Sequence record: MN648445
Source of the DNA: Escherichia phage FP43
Direction: 5' to 3' (one strand)
Length of the DNA: 64,000 bases
Below, piece by piece: positions 3,981 to 63,245 of the stretch. How positions within the stretch are numbered: position 1 is the stretch's first letter; each line of letters begins with the position of its first letter. The position numbers and the translations under genes were made by a program. Under the pieces are notes generated by a model. The model saw only the letters and a list, made by a program, of their open reading frames with translations. It ran no database searches and was not told the DNA's origin.

Positions 3981-4009
3981 GTTTACAAGGTCTATGGTTG
4001 TGTTATTAT
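3981..4009 (+). promoter_or_regulatory. T4-early-type promoter
   Basis: -35 GTTTAC, 17 bp, -10 TATTAT (TGT extended); IR AGGTCTAT/ATAGACCT brackets the -10. Confidence 0.55.
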
Positions 4010-4036
4010 AGACCTATCAACTACTGGAGGTAAAAC

Positions 4037-5622: not shown

Positions 5623-5651
5623 TGTACAACCAAGGATGGTTGGAGTATAAT
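5623..5651 (+). promoter_or_regulatory. T4-early-type promoter (CCAAGGATGGTTGG family)
   Basis: TGTACA ... CCAAGGATGGTTGGAG TATAAT. Confidence 0.5.
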
Positions 5652-6641: not shown

Positions 6642-6671
6642 GTTTACAACCAAGGATGGTTGGAGTATAAT
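6642..6671 (+). promoter_or_regulatory. T4-early-type promoter (CCAAGGATGGTTGG family)
   Basis: GTTTACAACCAAGGATGGTTGGAGTATAAT. Confidence 0.55.
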
Positions 6672-7952: not shown

Positions 7953-8365
7953 TGAGATATAGCCTTCGTTGTTTTATTGCAGCTTTAGTTTTTGCCATTA
8001 TTCCATTCATTTGGAACAGCCAGAATACTTACATGGAAACTAAAGTAATTCCTGTGGAGGTAGTGGAATTAATCTCAGGCCAATCTACAGGAAAATATTC
8101 TAAATTAGAATTTATTGCAGTCTATAAAGACGAGCAAGGACGAGTTTTTGACAGACGTGTATCACCGTCGTTTTATACGCTTCTGAATAAAGGTGATACG
8201 ATAGCTATAGAAATTCGTGAGATGGATATCAAACAAACTACTAAAGATAACTTGATTTGGTTCTTTGGTACAGTGTTGTTGGTTTCTATCTGTATCACAG
8301 GTTTTATTACATGTATTGTATTTGGCATTGCATATTTAATCGATGAAAGGAAAAATAATGTTTAA
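7952..8365 (+). CDS. membrane protein
   Basis: 137 aa; hydrophobic N- and C-terminal helices. Confidence 0.5.
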   Translation: MRYSLRCFIAALVFAIIPFIWNSQNTYMETKVIPVEVVELISGQSTGKYSKLEFIAVYKDEQGRVFDRRVSPSFYTLLNKGDTIAIEIREMDIKQTTKDNLIWFFGTVLLVSICITGFITCIVFGIAYLIDERKNNV

Positions 8366-14965: not shown

Positions 14966-14994
14966 TGTACAACGATAGGAAGACATGTTATTAT
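14966..14994 (+). promoter_or_regulatory. T4-early-type promoter
   Basis: -35 TGTACA, 17 bp, -10 TATTAT; IR GATAGGAAGA/TCTTCCTATC brackets -10. Confidence 0.5.
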
Positions 14995-15025
14995 CTTCCT
15001 ATCGTCTTAAAATGAGGAAAATATC

Positions 15026-15265: not shown

Positions 15266-15294
15266 TATACAAACTCTTGAGAGATGAGTATAAT
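15266..15294 (+). promoter_or_regulatory. T4-early-type promoter
   Basis: -35 TATACA, 17 bp, -10 TATAAT; IR GAGAGA/TCTCTC brackets -10. Confidence 0.5.
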
Positions 15295-15331
15295 TCTCTC
15301 GTTGGATAATAAAATAACCGAGGAAAATAAT

Positions 15332-16160: not shown

Positions 16161-16205
16161 GTGCTTTAAGATAGGTCTCTAAATATTATGATATAATAGA
16201 CCTAT
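16161..16205 (+). promoter_or_regulatory. promoter-like element upstream of gene 55 (MotA-box-like TGCTTTA, -10 TATAAT)
   Basis: GTGCTTTAAG ... TATAAT; IR ATAGGTCT/AGACCTAT flanks it. Confidence 0.35.
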
Positions 16206-20957: not shown

Positions 20958-20983
20958 ACGCTTTAACACGATGTGGTTATAAT
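20957..20983 (+). promoter_or_regulatory. middle-promoter-like element (MotA-box-like + -10)
   Basis: AAACGCTTTA then 12 nt then TATAAT; IR GATGTGGT/ACCACATC around the -10. Confidence 0.4.
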
Positions 20984-20999
20984 GACCACATCAAATTAA

Positions 21000-37237: not shown

Positions 37238-37266
37238 GTTTACTTCTCCAGTAGTTGTGTTATTAT
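37238..37266 (+). promoter_or_regulatory. T4-early-type promoter
   Basis: -35 GTTTAC, 17 bp, -10 TATTAT; 10-bp perfect IR CCAGTAGTTG/CAACTACTGG brackets -10. Confidence 0.55.
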
Positions 37267-37292
37267 AGACCTATCAACTACTGGAGAACAAA

Positions 37293-37610
37293 ATGAAAAC
37301 CATCGATTGTAAAGCAGAATTTAAGATTTTTTATCACGGTTCAAGTAGTTCAGCTAACATCGAAAACATGCTTTGTCCTCCTGAAGAAACAGGAGTTCTG
37401 TCTGAAACCGGACGTAAGAAAAACTTGAATCGTGTATTCTTTACTGAAGATATCGGTTTAGCAAAGATTTATGCAGGACGAGCCGCACGCTCTTATGGAG
37501 GTGAACCGCGTCTCTATCGAGTAATTTCTCCGGTAGACGTAGTTCAAATGAATAATACTAAAGGTGCTACAGTTTATCACGCTGAATGGGCATTTTGCGA
37601 GGAAATATGA
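37293..37610 (+). CDS. hypothetical protein
   Basis: 105-aa ORF with early promoter. Confidence 0.45.
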   Translation: MKTIDCKAEFKIFYHGSSSSANIENMLCPPEETGVLSETGRKKNLNRVFFTEDIGLAKIYAGRAARSYGGEPRLYRVISPVDVVQMNNTKGATVYHAEWAFCEEI

Positions 37611-38549: not shown

Positions 38550-38579
38550 GTTTACATTATAGATGGACTATAGTATAGT
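38550..38579 (+). promoter_or_regulatory. T4-early-type promoter upstream of sp
   Basis: -35 GTTTAC, -10 TATAGT; GGACTA/TAGTCC inverted repeat. Confidence 0.4.
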
Positions 38580-38608
38580 AGTCCTATCAAATCAACTAAG
38601 GAGTTAAA

Positions 38609-43915: not shown

Positions 43916-43943
43916 TTTACATTCCCTCCTCTCGTGTTATGAT
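43915..43943 (+). promoter_or_regulatory. T4-early-type promoter upstream of modB-like gene
   Basis: -35 GTTTAC, 17 bp, -10 TATGAT. Confidence 0.45.
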
Positions 43944-43970
43944 AGGCTTATCTTTAAATGGAGGTCTATC

Positions 43971-44552
43971 ATGACATGTCAATCTGAACTTCAAGAACGT
44001 GAATACCTAACAAATCTGATTGATAGCAAATTCACCCGCCAAGAACAAAACATTCTCTGGGCTTGCACCGATTCTAAGGAAGACCCGGATTTCCACTATG
44101 AATTAGACCATCTTGTTCGTAAGCATATGACTTCTACAGTACCAGTAGAACTCTACCGTGGTGTAACTCCAGAAGAAGTAGAACGTCTTTCTCTTCTTTC
44201 TGTTGGATGCCATTGGTCTCCTGGACGAGTAACATCGTTCACAACTGATTTCAGTACAGCTCGTCAATTCTCCGGGAGATGGGAATATCAGACGTACACT
44301 ATTCTTAGTCTCAGGAATGCTCCATTCATTTTTGATTACTACCAAAACATGGTTAACATTGTACTTGCCGGAAAGAATCCTAAGCATGTTATGGAAGAAA
44401 CGCGTGTTGATGTCCTAGATATGATTGAATCTGAACAAGAGTACATGGTCTCAGGTATCTCTAGATTTGAGATTGTGGAAATTGAAGACTTAGAATATGA
44501 CCCTTTATCTCGACTATACAAAATCATTCATTTAAAAATGTTGAATTTTTAG
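43971..44552 (+). CDS. modB: ADP-ribosyltransferase, ModB-like
   Basis: 193 aa; paralog of the next gene (shared ILW.C...VR...TS.VP...YRG); position matches T4 modB. Confidence 0.55.
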   Translation: MTCQSELQEREYLTNLIDSKFTRQEQNILWACTDSKEDPDFHYELDHLVRKHMTSTVPVELYRGVTPEEVERLSLLSVGCHWSPGRVTSFTTDFSTARQFSGRWEYQTYTILSLRNAPFIFDYYQNMVNIVLAGKNPKHVMEETRVDVLDMIESEQEYMVSGISRFEIVEIEDLEYDPLSRLYKIIHLKMLNF

Positions 44553-48433: not shown

Positions 48434-48463
48434 GTTTACAACCAAGGATGGTTGGAGTATAAT
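48434..48463 (+). promoter_or_regulatory. T4-early-type promoter (CCAAGGATGGTTGG family)
   Basis: GTTTACAACCAAGGATGGTTGGAGTATAAT. Confidence 0.55.
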
Positions 48464-48988: not shown

Positions 48989-48992
48989 TGTT

Positions 48993-49020
48993 GTACATCC
49001 AAGGACGGATGGAGTATAAT
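48993..49020 (+). promoter_or_regulatory. T4-early-type promoter (CCAAGGA family variant)
   Basis: TGTACATCCAAGGACGGATGGAGTATAAT. Confidence 0.5.
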
Positions 49021-49515: not shown

Positions 49516-49935
49516 ATGAATATTGTAAATCTCTCTACAGGTGATTACGTATATGTATCTGTTGCTTCTCGCTCTAAAGTTGCCGGGAAGTTGGTTGAAG
49601 TTCTTTCTGTGAGTGATCCGGTTTTTGGTCGTAACCAAGTTAAAGTTCGTGATGCTAATGGTAATATTGGCTACGTCTCAAGCCAGTTCATTGAGCCAGA
49701 AGAAAAAGCGTTCAAATGGGGACTATGCAGATCAGTTTCTGTTGAAAAAGACCATGAATTCACTATTGCTGCGGCAACTGATGGAACGCCATGGAAAACT
49801 AAGCAAATCGCCGGATTTATTAGCGACCGTTGGGTAGAAGATGGTGTTAAGCTTTATAACATCGTTTTCGCTGGTCAGTTCATGGTAGTTCCTGAATTCC
49901 AAATTAAAAAATATAGCCCAGCTGCTTTCGCATAA
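49516..49935 (+). CDS. hypothetical protein, paralog family member 3 of 3
   Basis: C-terminal GFISDRWVEDGVKLYNIVFAGQFMVVP. Confidence 0.5.
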   Translation: MNIVNLSTGDYVYVSVASRSKVAGKLVEVLSVSDPVFGRNQVKVRDANGNIGYVSSQFIEPEEKAFKWGLCRSVSVEKDHEFTIAAATDGTPWKTKQIAGFISDRWVEDGVKLYNIVFAGQFMVVPEFQIKKYSPAAFA

Positions 49936-49939
49936 AGTT

Positions 49940-49969
49940 GTTTACTTCTCCTCTGGTTTTGATATTATA
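49940..49969 (+). promoter_or_regulatory. T4-early-type promoter
   Basis: -35 GTTTAC, -10 TATTAT; 11-bp IR CTCCTCTGGTT/AACCAGAGGAG brackets -10 and covers the RBS. Confidence 0.5.
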
Positions 49970-49994
49970 ACCATATCAACCAGAGGAGAATAAT

Positions 49995-50519
49995 ATGTTA
50001 GTTTACCGCGTAGAACGTAGTTTTTGTACTCAACGTGAATCATTACCAGGAATTGTTATCGAAGACGGTAAAGCCGTCAGAATTTGGGAAACCTCTTGGA
50101 ATAAAGAACCTCGCTCACCTTACGGTTGGTCTGGCACTGACAACTCTGAAGAAACATGGGAGTTCCTTGATAAGCATGGAATACTCTCAGGTAACTTCTA
50201 CCATCACGGCGACAACTATAATGTCCCTAATCGTCCTACAGTAAATGAAGACAAACTTCTTGAACAAAATATCTTAAGATACCATAGAATTGAGTACACA
50301 TTTGAATTGAGTGAAGATTGGGCTCAAGGGTTCTATTTTGGATTTGAAAGCGTTGACGCGGTTTATGCATGGTTTGATGACCAGGTGGATGTTGAACTCT
50401 TGAAAGCTAAAGGATACTACATCGCGGTCTATGAAGCACCTGATTTCATCCTCGGAAGTTGTCAATTAATGTTTAGACGTTCATTGGCAGAACAAGTTGA
50501 TTTTATTTTGCTAAAATGA
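49995..50519 (+). CDS. hypothetical protein
   Basis: 174-aa ORF with promoter and GAGGAG RBS. Confidence 0.5.
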   Translation: MLVYRVERSFCTQRESLPGIVIEDGKAVRIWETSWNKEPRSPYGWSGTDNSEETWEFLDKHGILSGNFYHHGDNYNVPNRPTVNEDKLLEQNILRYHRIEYTFELSEDWAQGFYFGFESVDAVYAWFDDQVDVELLKAKGYYIAVYEAPDFILGSCQLMFRRSLAEQVDFILLK

Positions 50520-50548
50520 TGTACAACAACTATGGCCTATGATACTAT
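50520..50548 (+). promoter_or_regulatory. T4-early-type promoter
   Basis: -35 TGTACA, 17 bp, -10 TACTAT; followed by TATAGACCTATCAA. Confidence 0.5.
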
Positions 50549-50576
50549 AGACCTATCAAAACAAGAGGAGAATATT

Positions 50577-53747: not shown

Positions 53748-54848
53748 ATGAAAGTTATGTTTATCCCATCTCGCGCAGTCCCATTTAACCCAGAACGTGT
53801 ACAAGGTGGTCTTGAAGCAGTACATTTAAATGTATTGAAATATCTTGTGTCCATCGGTGCTGATATTGATTATATCGGCTTTGATAATGACACGTTTGGT
53901 GACTGGAAGGTTAATCATCATCCTGTTGGTCATCTGACTAAATTCAGTCTAGGTATGAGTTATACTATGGCTCGTAAGATTGTTGAACTAGCCGGCATCC
54001 ATGAATACGATTTTGTTGTTACTATGGAACCGACCAAACTAACCGTTCAGGCAATTAAAGACGCAGGTCTCTCTAAAGTTCATAAGAATTTTATGGCAAC
54101 ACCATTTGAACCGGTATCTCGTGGCATTGTTCAAATTTGGGACCAGACTATTCAAATTCATAAGAACGGTGGTAAGAGTTATGCTCCTACTAAAGCCTTC
54201 CGTGAATTTGAACGCAAATATTGTTATATGACTTCAGGTCTGACTGACAAAATTGATTATGATTATTGGCGAGCAAATCCGTTGTTTGAAGCCGAAGATT
54301 ATCCGGTTATTTGTTTGAATGAGAAACCTGAAGTTCTTCCGGCGACTGATCTGATTATTAGTGCACAACGTTATGACACTAAAATGCGTCGTACTGATGT
54401 TGCTCTTGAAGCGATTAAAGCACTAGGCGAAAATGGTGCAGGATACTGTCCTAGTAAATGGGCACCACCAGCTAAATATCCTGTTATTATTGATGCTCCA
54501 CACAGTGAAATCATGGAACGTCTTAAAACAGCTAAAGCACTTATCAATACGTGTCCTGACACGGGTACGGTAGAGAATAGTTCTATTGAAGCCATCTCTA
54601 AAGGTGTCCCTGTGATTCAGTTAGTTTTTAAGGATTATCCGCACGCGACATTCGAATATGACCCAGATACTGTGCGTGTAGAAATTGATTCCTCTACTCC
54701 TAAGAAAGAAGTAGTTGCGCTTTACACAAAAGCTGTATTAGAATTCACTGACACATACGAAGCTCGAGTTAAACGTGCTGAAGCAGTATGGAAGAAGTAT
54801 AACCGAGATGCAGTTGTTGCGATGTGGGATAAAATCTTCACAGCGTAA
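53748..54848 (+). CDS. putative GT-B fold glycosyltransferase (candidate DNA hmC glycosyltransferase)
   Basis: 366 aa; N-terminal MKVMFIP...GGLE and C-terminal TGTVENSSIEAISKGVPVI resemble GT-B donor-binding region; lies between 39 and rIIA. Confidence 0.5.
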   Translation: MKVMFIPSRAVPFNPERVQGGLEAVHLNVLKYLVSIGADIDYIGFDNDTFGDWKVNHHPVGHLTKFSLGMSYTMARKIVELAGIHEYDFVVTMEPTKLTVQAIKDAGLSKVHKNFMATPFEPVSRGIVQIWDQTIQIHKNGGKSYAPTKAFREFERKYCYMTSGLTDKIDYDYWRANPLFEAEDYPVICLNEKPEVLPATDLIISAQRYDTKMRRTDVALEAIKALGENGAGYCPSKWAPPAKYPVIIDAPHSEIMERLKTAKALINTCPDTGTVENSSIEAISKGVPVIQLVFKDYPHATFEYDPDTVRVEIDSSTPKKEVVALYTKAVLEFTDTYEARVKRAEAVWKKYNRDAVVAMWDKIFTA

Positions 54849-59144: not shown

Positions 59145-59174
59145 GTTTACAACTAAGTAGGACTATGATATAGT
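59145..59174 (+). promoter_or_regulatory. T4-early-type promoter
   Basis: -35 GTTTAC, -10 TATAGT; inverted repeat TAGGACTA/TAGTCCTA. Confidence 0.4.
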
Positions 59175-59200
59175 AGTCCTATCTAAAAGAGGATAACATC

Positions 59201-59656: not shown

Positions 59657-59686
59657 GTTTACAACAAGGTAGGATTATGGTATAGT
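59657..59686 (+). promoter_or_regulatory. T4-early-type promoter
   Basis: -35 GTTTAC, 18 bp, -10 TATAGT; IR GTAGGA/TCCTAC. Confidence 0.4.
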
Positions 59687-59714
59687 AGTCCTACTGAAAC
59701 ATGAGGAACACAAA

Positions 59715-59919: not shown

Positions 59920-59948
59920 GTACAAACTCTTGAGAGCAGAGTATAATG
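59920..59948 (+). promoter_or_regulatory. T4-early-type promoter upstream of ndd
   Basis: -35 TGTACA, 17 bp, -10 TATAAT; IR TGAGAGC/GCTCTCA brackets -10. Confidence 0.5.
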
Positions 59949-59992
59949 CTCTCATGGATTACAAAAAACATTAATCAATTGAGGAAATTAGC

Positions 59993-60439
59993 ATGTCCAA
60001 ATATTTAACTCGTAAAGACCTTCTGGCAGTTGGCGGTGAAGTTGTTGCAGTGGTTCGTAACGGCGAATACGGTTCTGAAGTTTCTAAAGAGTTTCGTTCT
60101 CGTGAAGGTTTTTACTTCTTTGTTAAAGGTTCATCTGATTGGCGACAAGTAGCAGCACGATTCTTTGTAGGACGTCAACGTTCTAAACAAGGGTTGGATG
60201 CAATTCTTTCTCACATTCGTCAAGGCCGTTCGCAACTAGCCCGTACCATGGGTACTAATAATATTGAATATGACGTAATCTTTGTTTCAGCCAAGAACAT
60301 GAAACCACTGACCACTGGTTATGGTAAAGGTCAATTGGCTCTGGCATTCACTCGCAACCATACATCAGAATATCAAACACTCACTGAAATGAACCGTCTT
60401 CTGGCCGATAATTTCAAATTCATTCTGCAGAGTTACTAA
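59993..60439 (+). CDS. ndd: nucleoid disruption protein Ndd
   Basis: FYVGNQRSKQG..SHIRQ.RSQLART...[37 protein letters not shown] matches remembered T4 Ndd. Confidence 0.85.
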
Positions 60440-62612: not shown

Positions 62613-63245
62613 ATGTCTAAAGTTACTTACATCATCAAAGCTTCTGAAAACGCTCTGAATGAAAAAACTGCTGCAATAATGGTTTATATCATTAAGAACA
62701 ACTTCACCACTGCTGCCAATGTCCGTGAAGCCCTGGAAGCAGAATACAGTGCATCAGTTGTTAACTCTAACATTGGTGTATTGATTAAGAAAGGTTTAGT
62801 CGAAAAATCCGGTGATGGACTTGTAGCAACAGGCGAAGCAATGGATATTATCCAAAAAGCTGCAGACCTCTTTGCCCAAGAAAATGCTCCAGAACTTCTT
62901 CAGAAACGTAACACCAGAAAAGCACGTGGAGTTACTCCTGAAATGCATGAATTAGCAAACTTTGTTTTTGAAAATATTAAAGATAAAGTTGAAGTTAAAG
63001 AAATTGGTGAAAACCGTAGTAACTTAGAAGTTCGATTCGCTAAACGAGTTCTAGGCATTCGCCAAATTGAAATTCGACGAGATGGCGCTCTTAGAATCTT
63101 TGCATACAACATGTCAGAAACTGAATCAAAGCTGTTTACTTCTCTTGAAAATGATGTTAAGATTAAGATCGGTGGTAAATATACTTACATTGACTTCCCT
63201 AATGTGTCTAAAGAAATCATTACCCTTGTAACTAACGTACTGTGA
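62613..63245 (+). CDS. motA: middle-transcription activator MotA
   Basis: MSKVTYIIKASENALNEKTA...NSNIGVLIKKGLVEKSGDGL matches remembered T4 MotA. Confidence 0.9.
   Translation: MSKVTYIIKASENALNEKTAAIMVYIIKNNFTTAANVREALEAEYSASVVNSNIGVLIKKGLVEKSGDGLVATGEAMDIIQKAADLFAQENAPELLQKRNTRKARGVTPEMHELANFVFENIKDKVEVKEIGENRSNLEVRFAKRVLGIRQIEIRRDGALRIFAYNMSETESKLFTSLENDVKIKIGGKYTYIDFPNVSKEIITLVTNVL

Follow-up and report, generated by a model that had tools for sequence, protein, structure and literature searches.

Stem-loops nested in the early promoters of a T4-like Mosigvirus: PeSL-type elements with conserved pairing and variable sequence, some predicted to mask ribosome sites in read-through RNA

The window analysed here is a stretch of 64,000 nucleotides from Escherichia phage FP43 (sequence record MN648445), and its sequence places the phage among the T4/RB69-like Mosigviruses. 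A ~4-kb stretch around the focal site has 99.5% identity to Mosigvirus vB_EcoM_SA79RD (Straboviridae, Tevenvirinae) and also matches hundreds of T4-like phages. According to the SA79RD annotation the window corresponds to the prereplicative region, with nrdC, 55, 43, uvsX, 41, 56, modA/B, dda, dexA, motB, 39, and rIIA/B, and nearly all of its genes lie on the plus strand. The focal promoter sits between a small ORF and a gene for a MotB.2-like protein, where the following features were found:

49933-49935, plus strand: stop codon of the upstream gene, bounding the focal intergenic gap
49941-49946, plus strand: -35 hexamer TTTACT, in the arrangement TTTACT-16-TATTAT with TG
49946-49958, plus strand: left arm TTCTCCTCTGGTT, CT-rich and anti-SD-like, in the -35/-10 spacer and 5' of the predicted start
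49960-49965 with 49972-49977, plus strand: inner helix TGATAT/ATATCA, closing around the -10
49963-49968, plus strand: -10 hexamer TATTAT, in the loop, with an extended -10 TG at 49960-49961
49978-49990, plus strand: right arm AACCAGAGGAGAA, which holds the SD GAGGAG (49983-49988) and ends 4 nt before the ATG
49995-50519, plus strand: MotB.2-like gene, 174 aa, equivalent to SA79RD_009 in OL960576

The focal site carries a strong sigma-70-like early promoter, and a consensus scan calls a promoter there; a consensus terminator scan did not call the focal hairpin. The stem comprises 13 bp with the SD inside it and folds to -23.9 kcal/mol. Start sites, here and at the other promoters, were inferred from the position of the -10 at the usual spacing of ~7 nt, which puts the focal start at ~49975 and leaves the left arm, ending at 49958, upstream of it. 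A reading made from the letters of the DNA alone (the sequence-only reading) had proposed that read-through transcripts sequester the GAGGAG within 49948-49988. Folding bears this out, since opening the initiation region is calculated to cost 19.2 kcal/mol in read-through RNA, where the 13-bp stem forms, and 1.7 kcal/mol in RNA from the site's own promoter, a difference of +17.5 kcal/mol. In T4, motB.2 has a ribosome-site mask too (-23.7 kcal/mol), and MotB.2 orthologues, T4 included, keep such a mask built from different arms.

Promoters were chosen blind to the repeats. Each had to combine a -35 that departs from TTTACA, TTTACT, or TTGACA at no more than one base with a -10 that matches TAnnnT equally well, the two being 16-18 nt apart, and to have a real ORF with SD and ATG downstream. 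These criteria yielded 25 credible early promoters on the plus strand and essentially none on the minus strand. The bracketing stem of each was defined as the longest perfect Watson–Crick stem with the centre of the -10 inside its loop. Such stems reach at least 6 bp at 9 of the 25 promoters and at least 8 bp at 6, against expectations of 1.6 and 0.11 when the spacer is shuffled and of 2.8 and 0.57 when spacers are swapped between promoters, a control that preserves all conserved promoter motifs. None of 1000 control replicates reached the observed counts. Other -10-like hexamers in the window (n = 1011) have stems of at least 6 bp in 8.5% of cases and of at least 8 bp in 1.2%, from which the promoters differ with binomial P values of 1e-4 and 4e-7, respectively.

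All eight inverted repeats quoted by the sequence-only reading were located, and its count of at least ten promoters with a repeat was correct, as we count at least 11 including those at 16171 and 20970. Three sites (38565-38584, 59158-59181, and 59669-59694) add to its list. Apart from the focal site and two further masking hairpins described below, the repeats are:

3988-4015, plus strand: tight hairpin AGGTCTAT / ATAGACCT around the -10 at 4004-4009, at an nrdC.8-like gene; initiation region unaffected
14972-15005, plus strand: tight hairpin ACGATAGGAAGA / TCTTCCTATCGT around the -10 at 14989; 12 bp, -16.7 kcal/mol
15279-15300, plus strand: tight hairpin GAGAGA / TCTCTC around the -10 at 15289, upstream of a 55.2-like gene
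16171-16205, plus strand: repeat ATAGGTCT / AGACCTAT with a 19-nt loop; -9.2 kcal/mol, z -1.9
20970-20992, plus strand: repeat GATGTGGT / ACCACATC around TATAAT; -13.3 kcal/mol, z -4.9
38565-38584, plus strand: tight hairpin GGACTA / TAGTCC around the -10 at 38574
59158-59181, plus strand: tight hairpin TAGGACTA / TAGTCCTA around the -10 at 59169
59669-59694, plus strand: tight hairpin GTAGGA(TTA) / (TAG)TCCTAC around the -10 at 59681; 11 bp with G·U allowed
59931-59954, plus strand: tight hairpin TGAGAGCA / TGCTCTCA around the -10 at 59942

Stems range from 6 to 14 bp and the spacing between arms from 3 to 24 nt. As RNA, the window hairpins fold to between -13 and -24 kcal/mol with z of -3 to -8, the 16171 repeat being weaker, and no Rfam covariance model matched anywhere in the window at the gathering threshold. 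Only about a third of early promoters carry a repeat and about two thirds do not, so the feature is optional. The description of its sites as many early promoters holds for that third but not for every example, as the 20970 promoter is of the middle type (MotA box GCTTTA-N12-TATAAT) and the 16171 repeat has a MotA-box-like GCTTTA upstream at a spacing that fits a -10 poorly, leaving its promoter class uncertain. Likewise, arms were said to differ between promoters, and at least seven distinct pairs are present, but several sites share AGACCTAT or TAGTCC because the right arm overlaps the conserved motif after the -10, TATTAT-AGACCTATCAA. The 59942 promoter is a paralogue of the 15289 promoter, and the differences between them are compensatory changes.

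Two further hairpins reach the ribosome-binding site of the downstream gene:

37244-37288, plus strand: wide hairpin TTCTCCAGTAGTTG / CAACTACTGGAGAA, 14 bp, -21.1 kcal/mol, with the -10 at 37261
43939-43972, plus strand: masking hairpin ATGATAGGCTT / AGGTCTATCAT, -18.7 kcal/mol, upstream of modB

The first has the same architecture as the focal site and masks the SD of a 105-aa gene at 37293 at a calculated opening cost of +18.0 kcal/mol; the promoters at 37239 and 49941 are paralogues, separated by three compensatory double changes. In the second, the -10 hexamer (43938-43943) itself contributes to the 5' arm, and the SD and the AU of the modB start codon are covered by the 3' arm, for an opening cost of +15.2 kcal/mol. 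This class, in which the 5' arm draws on the -10 and the SD and AUG lie under the 3' arm, was absent from the sequence-only reading. Among ModB orthologues (positional candidates confirmed by blastp; tblastn with the N-terminus of the window ModB found too few), 10 loci spanning 24-95% protein identity keep a mask upstream, built from nine different arm pairs.

The generality of the repeats was assessed in 126 loci (~2 Mb) from diverse T4-like contigs. The focal MotB.2-like protein as query recovered only three near-identical loci, so 20-kb loci anchored on gp49, gp56, and rIIB were used instead. Together with the window these yielded 303 non-redundant early promoters, redundancy having been cut by clustering (Hamming distance >6 over 50 nt), although the remaining promoters are still kin by descent or recombination. 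A stem of at least 6 bp was found in 98 of them (32%) against 23-26 expected, and one of at least 8 bp in 46 (15%) against 1.6-3.3 expected, so that in both the window and this larger set the repeats exceed the shuffled background against which the sequence-only reading had proposed to check them. The comparison with T4 early promoters that it had also suggested gives a similar picture, with a bracketing stem of at least 6 bp in 11 of 32 and of at least 8 bp in 8; bracketed T4 sites lie just 5' of dmd, mobD.2, denV, ipI, ipII, ipIII, 30.7, and 30.8. Loop centres of stems of at least 7 bp cluster sharply between 0 and +3, counted from the -10's first base (47 of 196). There are lesser peaks too: one at about -40 consists of true terminators that immediately precede the -35, and another spans +12 to +20, where the T4-like set has 33 stems of at least 7 bp, most of those listed being of the form with the -10 in the 5' arm.

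In orthologous promoters, gathered by way of the gene they precede, hairpins persist at particular gene junctions while their arms are replaced. At the 55.2-like junction the hairpin is kept in 15 of 17 orthologous promoters with eight different left arms, among them GAGAGA/TCTCTC, GGGACCA/TGGTCCT, GAGGACA/TGTCCTC, GGGGTCAT/ATGACCCC, and ATAGAGAT/ATCTCTAT as well as others, and it is retained even where the promoter has switched from the -35 type to the MotA-box type. A nine-sequence alignment of the 7-bp helix at this junction has 98% of cells paired and changes on both sides in 6 of 7 pairs; its covariation score of 0.68, compared with 0.09-0.20 for slid registers, was reached by none of 500 shuffles. 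For the middle-promoter subfamily, a MAFFT alignment (A1) was out of register at sequences with one extra base pair, so pair counts were taken from alignment A2. Equivalent persistence was found for the nrdC.8-like gene (12 of 13 orthologous promoters, eight left arms), for cef (12 of 12, eight arms), and for the gene at 59993 (8 of 8). These junction-specific hairpins persist across phages whose proteins share 25-65% identity, and the suggestion that structure rather than sequence is conserved is upheld, as arm sequences turn over completely while the pairing is kept.

The form in which the pairing is selected can be approached through its imperfections. Single mismatches within stems, read on the sense strand, are G·T in 19 cases and A·C in 5 (P = 0.007), whereas the arm-swap control has 16 G·T and 20 A·C along with many other types. 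The sense strand also has a lower folding energy than the antisense strand (P = 0.003). The excess of G·T and the better folding of the sense strand argue for a single-stranded sense molecule, most simply RNA, and thus the sequence comparisons point to a hairpin in sense-strand RNA as the selected structure. G·T is also the best-tolerated mismatch in single-stranded DNA hairpins, and the asymmetry is therefore compatible with a hairpin in the non-template DNA strand as well.

The consequence for the ribosome site was measured as an energy difference: the free energy of opening the initiation region (-13 to +2) was calculated for read-through RNA, and the value for RNA from the site's own promoter was subtracted. 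The difference is at least 10 kcal/mol at 37 of 291 promoters (~13%), compared with 4.1 in swap and 2.0 in shuffle controls, and at most 0.25 kcal/mol at 98 (about one third), compared with 79 and 51. With an excess at both ends, the distribution over the 291 promoters is bimodal. Complementarity between spacer and SD is also enriched. The seven tight hairpins at 4004, 14989, 15289, 38574, 59169, 59681, and 59942 end at or before the predicted start, ~20 nt 5' of the AUG, and alter the opening energy by only -1.0 to +0.5 kcal/mol. Every left arm precedes the predicted start (~7 nt beyond the -10), in agreement with the earlier claim that only read-through RNA contains the whole hairpin. The further suggestion, that translation is coupled to the choice of promoter, stands as a prediction for the focal site, the promoters at 37261 and 43938, and ~13% of the 291, but fails for the seven tight hairpins and hence for most of the examples first listed. 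When the initiation region was scored by its mean unpaired probability and set against mononucleotide shuffles, no general masking emerged (accessibility was slightly higher, 0.515 vs 0.486), and by this measure the focal site is no outlier. That null result arises because the CT-rich composition of the spacer survives shuffling and because pairing probability ignores the stability of the helix; opening energy with swap controls resolves the conflict.

The repeats are real, strongly non-random, and evolutionarily maintained. We propose, with a probability of about 0.7, that they are PeSL-type stem-loops nested in early promoters, and in some MotA middle promoters, which form RNA hairpins of a masking and a tight class. 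Sigma-70 early promoters with a nested stem-loop would fill very tight intergenic gaps. Only RNA begun further upstream would form the hairpin, because the 5' arm, located in the spacer or taking in the -10, precedes the point at which the promoter's own transcripts are predicted to start. In the masking class (49946-49990, 37244-37288, and 43939-43972), the 3' arm would cover the SD, or SD and AUG, rendering masked read-through RNA poorly translatable and shielding its GGAG from RegB, and RNA from the early promoter itself would keep its ribosome site free. Synthesis of the MotB.2-like protein, ModB, and the 105-aa protein would then be confined to the period in which their early promoters fire.

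In the tight class, which would be the majority, the 3' arm is predicted to end at about +1 with the ribosome site untouched. These would be intercistronic hairpins, probably distinct from classical intrinsic terminators, that close the upstream cistron at its 3' end. Their location within the promoter would follow from lack of space: at bracketed promoters the median distance from the end of the upstream stop to the -10 is 26 nt, which leaves the stop directly against the -35. Such compaction accords with the lower frequency of terminator-like hairpins upstream of bracketed promoters and with the promoterless hairpin that relatives L029-L033 have at the position of the 15279-15300 hairpin. 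Our guess is that they attenuate or pause read-through, block 3' exonucleases, or both. The -35, TGn, and -10 are fixed by RNA polymerase, so complementarity has room to arise in the spacer and the discriminator/+1 region alone, and pairing one with the other necessarily leaves the -10 in the loop. The -10-centred loop is therefore probably a consequence of the fixed promoter elements.

It is unlikely, in our view, that the hairpins in such gaps are instead ordinary Rho-independent terminators, stopping upstream transcripts shortly ahead of the following promoter. GenBank OL960576 does label the equivalents of the 49951-49995, ~4004, ~14989, and ~20970 hairpins as rho-independent terminators (TransTermHP/WebGeSTer), 'terminator' is the PeSL papers' own word, and one RB49 PeSL stem-loop, the only one assayed, cut lacZ about as much as rrnB T1 (PMC2839356). 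Also in favour of terminators, a terminator-like hairpin is less frequent upstream where a bracketing stem is present (odds ratio 0.48, P = 0.026), and relatives L029-L033 have a canonical terminator, a GGGC-UUCG-GCCC+T6 hairpin without a promoter, at the position of the 15279-15300 hairpin and followed by the same conserved TTGGATAATAAAAT. Yet the definition of a terminator as a G+C-rich stem with a short loop and a T/U-tract does not describe the bracketing stems, as the 8 nt 3' of the right arm contain no T-tract; they average 1.7 T and are A/C-rich, like ATCAAAACAA. This, and the failure of the terminator scan to call the focal hairpin, make the OL960576 labels doubtful as classical terminators. 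AT-rich stems and loops as long as these (8-24 nt) are also unusual for terminators, and hairpins of the wide class end in the SD, 4 nt before the AUG.

A feature acting in DNA is, in our judgement, quite unlikely, whether a cruciform or hairpin, homology for recombination of cassettes, or an aid to promoter opening through a single-stranded -10. Exchange is suggested by PeSL-flanked mini-circles with crossovers within the loop (PMC2839356), and the promoters at 3982 and 37239, which share an identical 33-nt right half joined to different left arms, with other combinations in their orthologues, fit an exchange within the loop. The centring of the loop on the AT-rich -10 would suit promoter opening. 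A two-strand cruciform, however, would not be expected to show the 19 to 5 bias for G·T in the sense strand or the lower sense energy, and homologous recombination needs neither complementarity within the element nor compensatory changes. Loops of up to 24 nt disfavour cruciform extrusion, and the SD/AUG masks are conserved at particular genes.

It is very improbable that the repeats have no function, as chance complementarity between the post-(-10) motif and the spacer or as quasi-palindromes perfected by templated strand-switch repair. Enrichment survives the arm-swap control that preserves the motifs, hairpins persist at specific junctions despite arm turnover and 25-65% protein identity, and neither the strand asymmetry nor the bimodal effect on ribosome sites is expected under neutrality. 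These results weigh against the frequent overlap of the right arm with the conserved AGACCTATCAA motif and the standing of T4 as the classical system for quasi-palindrome-templated mutation, both of which favour a neutral origin.

The idea that the repeats are palindromic operators, bound by a DNA-binding protein of phage or host to shut off early promoters, draws some appeal from dyad symmetry over the -10 (the classical operator position) and from a shut-off mechanism still unknown (PMC2988021), but is essentially refuted by arm diversity: at least seven unrelated arm pairs occur in one genome and turn over completely between orthologues, as the sequence-only reading had anticipated in calling a single operator-binding repressor unlikely, the arms are spaced 3-24 nt apart rather than at a fixed distance, and tolerated G·T 'pairs' would be meaningless to a protein reading duplex DNA.

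The interpretation as PeSL-type RNA hairpins can be extended, tentatively and at some risk of overreach, to a genome-wide RNA code for promoter of origin, rather than terminators or recombination sites, in which about one eighth of early promoters would gate translation and about one third would carry a hairpin that insulates and marks the cistron boundary for RNA decay. Gating of translation to a gene's own immediate-early transcripts would mirror the late-only gating of gene e, with conservation at modB and motB.2 that extends from T4 to Mosigvirus. For the insulating third, the ribosome site would be spared and promoter-derived RNA would fold on itself, insulating the next ribosome site.

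The cassettes would decide the expression of dozens of small T4-like early genes from overlapping transcripts. If masking works as we infer, synthesis of ModB and the other masked products would be limited to the time when their own early promoters are firing, despite continued transcription. Genome annotations call such hairpins 'rho-independent terminators' and sometimes miss the promoter they enclose, and compact elements combining promoter and insulator would be useful parts for phage engineering. Our literature search found no earlier report of SD masking at modB or motB.2, and no T4 3'-end or Term-seq map.

The repeats are a further instance of the published PeSL element (Arbiol 2010, Comeau 2014), an identity that the sequence-only reading had not recognised. 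In the PeSL papers the cassette is described as a strong sigma-70-like early promoter with a stem-loop, mostly between -35 and -10 or overlapping the -10; a terminator/attenuator role and recombinational shuffling are proposed, and middle versions (PmSL) exist (PMC2839356; PMC4122927). Published cassettes and those described here alike place an early promoter together with a stem-loop in the short gap from an upstream stop to the next SD-ATG, and both have variable stem sequences and tolerate G-T pairs. The published cassettes are also associated with plastic regions and with cassette exchange, to which the right half shared by the promoters at 3982 and 37239 may be a counterpart. The focal site has three of the defining parts: a sigma-70 promoter, an overlapping inverted repeat, and an intergenic position between the stop at 49933-49935 and the ATG at 49995. 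PeSLs have been described in RB49/phi1, PST/T4, and nt-1/KVP40, to which the present RB69-like Mosigvirus adds a further genus, and the PST/T4 stems are drawn just upstream of the promoter, whereas here the -10 lies in the loop. RB49 stems have the form GGGG...CCCC, unlike the AT-richer stems without a T-tract found here. The 2010 paper (PMC2839356) does not mention RB69, covariation, or translation, and the parts of the 2014 paper (PMC4122927) examined discuss neither covariation nor translation. Selection at the level of sense RNA, tails unlike those of terminators, and the division into masking and non-masking hairpins with masks at modB and motB.2 would be additions to the PeSL literature examined.

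Two kinds of intercistronic hairpin offer a second comparison. In bacterial promoter-coupled terminators, a hairpin that stops read-through and the next promoter share a few dozen base pairs, saving space between tandem genes (Fletcher et al., bioRxiv 10.64898/2026.08.19.745784). There the hairpin lies over the -35 with a T-tract in the spacer just before the -10, whereas the window hairpins hold the -10 in the loop and lack a T-tract; the promoter-coupled geometry does occur in the relatives L013, L017, and L018. Stable C(UUCG)G hairpins between T4 cistrons, with the tetraloop, a GC-rich stem, and often a T-tract, were reportedly described by Tuerk et al. in 1988. The hairpin that L029-L033 carry in place of the one at 15279-15300 contains the C(UUCG)G loop, a type that has no promoter in its loop.

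The masking class has counterparts in translational control. CT-rich anti-SD insulators of sigma-54 promoters silence read-through translation (Levy et al., bioRxiv 10.1101/086108), and the focal left arm TTCTCCTC is likewise a pyrimidine-rich promoter segment that pairs with a downstream SD. Those insulators are bacterial, measure 3-5 nt, and lie within 25 nt of the SD, whereas the stems here are perfect over 11-14 bp and belong to phage sigma-70 promoters. Similar in form are hairpins known from T4 e, soc, 49, and I-TevI, which sequester the SD and have a promoter within them; RNA structure is also known to block RegB (PMC3014915). In these a helix over SD and/or AUG has its 5' strand upstream of the internal promoter, so that long read-through RNA is untranslatable and RNA from the internal promoter is translated, an architecture predicted for the focal, 37244-37288, and 43939-43972 hairpins. 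The internal promoter of the e-type hairpins is late (gp55, TATAAATA) and translation is delayed; here it is an immediate-early sigma-70 promoter and translation would be restricted to the early burst. Masking, if it operates in this way, would be a simple timing device complementing the classical lysozyme case.

At many promoters in the window the sequence following the -10 is conserved as TAtnAT-AGACCTATCAA and gives way to an A/C-rich leader (examples at 2538, 4004, 37261, 45316, 50543, 62249 and 62570). This conservation constrains the right arm of the nested hairpin, which accounts for arm sequences being common to several hairpins. Two promoters, 3982-4036 and 37239-37292, match each other at every one of the 33 nt of the right half (GTTGTGTTATTATAGACCTATCAACTACTGGAG) and differ in their left arms, so that one fold is tight, ending near the predicted start with the ribosome site untouched, and the other is wide, its 3' arm masking the Shine-Dalgarno (SD) sequence. 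Other phages have the wide left arm in front of their counterpart of the 4037 gene. Judged from sequence, the pattern looks like cassette exchange inside the loop.

At the cef promoter (50520-50560) the left arm reads GGCCTAT in the window and GGTCTAT in a near-identical phage (L002), resulting in an A·C mismatch against ATAGACC. A hairpin is kept at this junction in 12/12 relatives, and the stem in the window has, by this comparison, probably been weakened recently.

Two further hairpin arrangements occur in the window:

43939-43972, third hairpin class, modB promoter and initiation region, -18.7 kcal/mol
5627-5642, 6647-6662 and 48439-48454, small hairpin CAACCA-AGGA-TGGTTG entirely within the spacer, about -7 kcal/mol
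48992-49020, variant copy of the spacer hairpin, TCCA...TGGA

In the modB hairpin the -10 hexamer and discriminator form the 5' arm and pair with the SD and AUG. ModB orthologues keep an upstream hairpin, built from nine different arm pairs. Among the 303 non-redundant early promoters of the window and 126 T4-like loci, stems of 7 bp or longer whose loop centres fall at +12 to +20 (counted from the -10 start) number 33, and most of those listed show this modB-type form. The spacer-contained hairpin is common to four window promoters, the 48992 copy differing from the other three by a compensatory change (A-T to T-A), and represents the "between -35 and -10" subclass of the published promoter-early stem-loop (PeSL) cassette.

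T4 itself (NC_000866) has long, imperfect, G·U-rich hairpins in which a CT-rich spacer is paired with the SD (-18 to -24 kcal/mol):

near 62773, just upstream of regB
near 53919, nrdC.8
near 65390, denV
near 8194, motB.2

RegB cleaves its own mRNA at the SD, which makes the regB site of interest.

In the nearest GenBank record, OL960576 (phage vB_EcoM_SA79RD), several promoter-nested hairpins are labelled rho-independent terminators:

locus L001, 21952-21996
locus L026, 12966-13009, 6979-7011 and 23834-23871

All of these hairpins lack a T-tract, and OL960576 has no promoter annotated at the focal site (49946-49990). In loci L029-L033, in front of the orthologue of window gene 15332, a GGGC-TTCG-GCCC+T6 terminator, without a promoter, stands in place of the promoter hairpin, and the conserved TTGGATAATAAAAT comes after it as in the window. 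In L013, L017 and L018, ahead of the gene orthologous to window gene 37293, the -35 hexamer lies in the loop of a GC-rich terminator hairpin (GGGG-cTTACAg-CCCC or GGGG-TGTACA-CCCC) whose T-tract serves as the promoter spacer, a layout matching the bacterial "promoter-coupled terminator" geometry.
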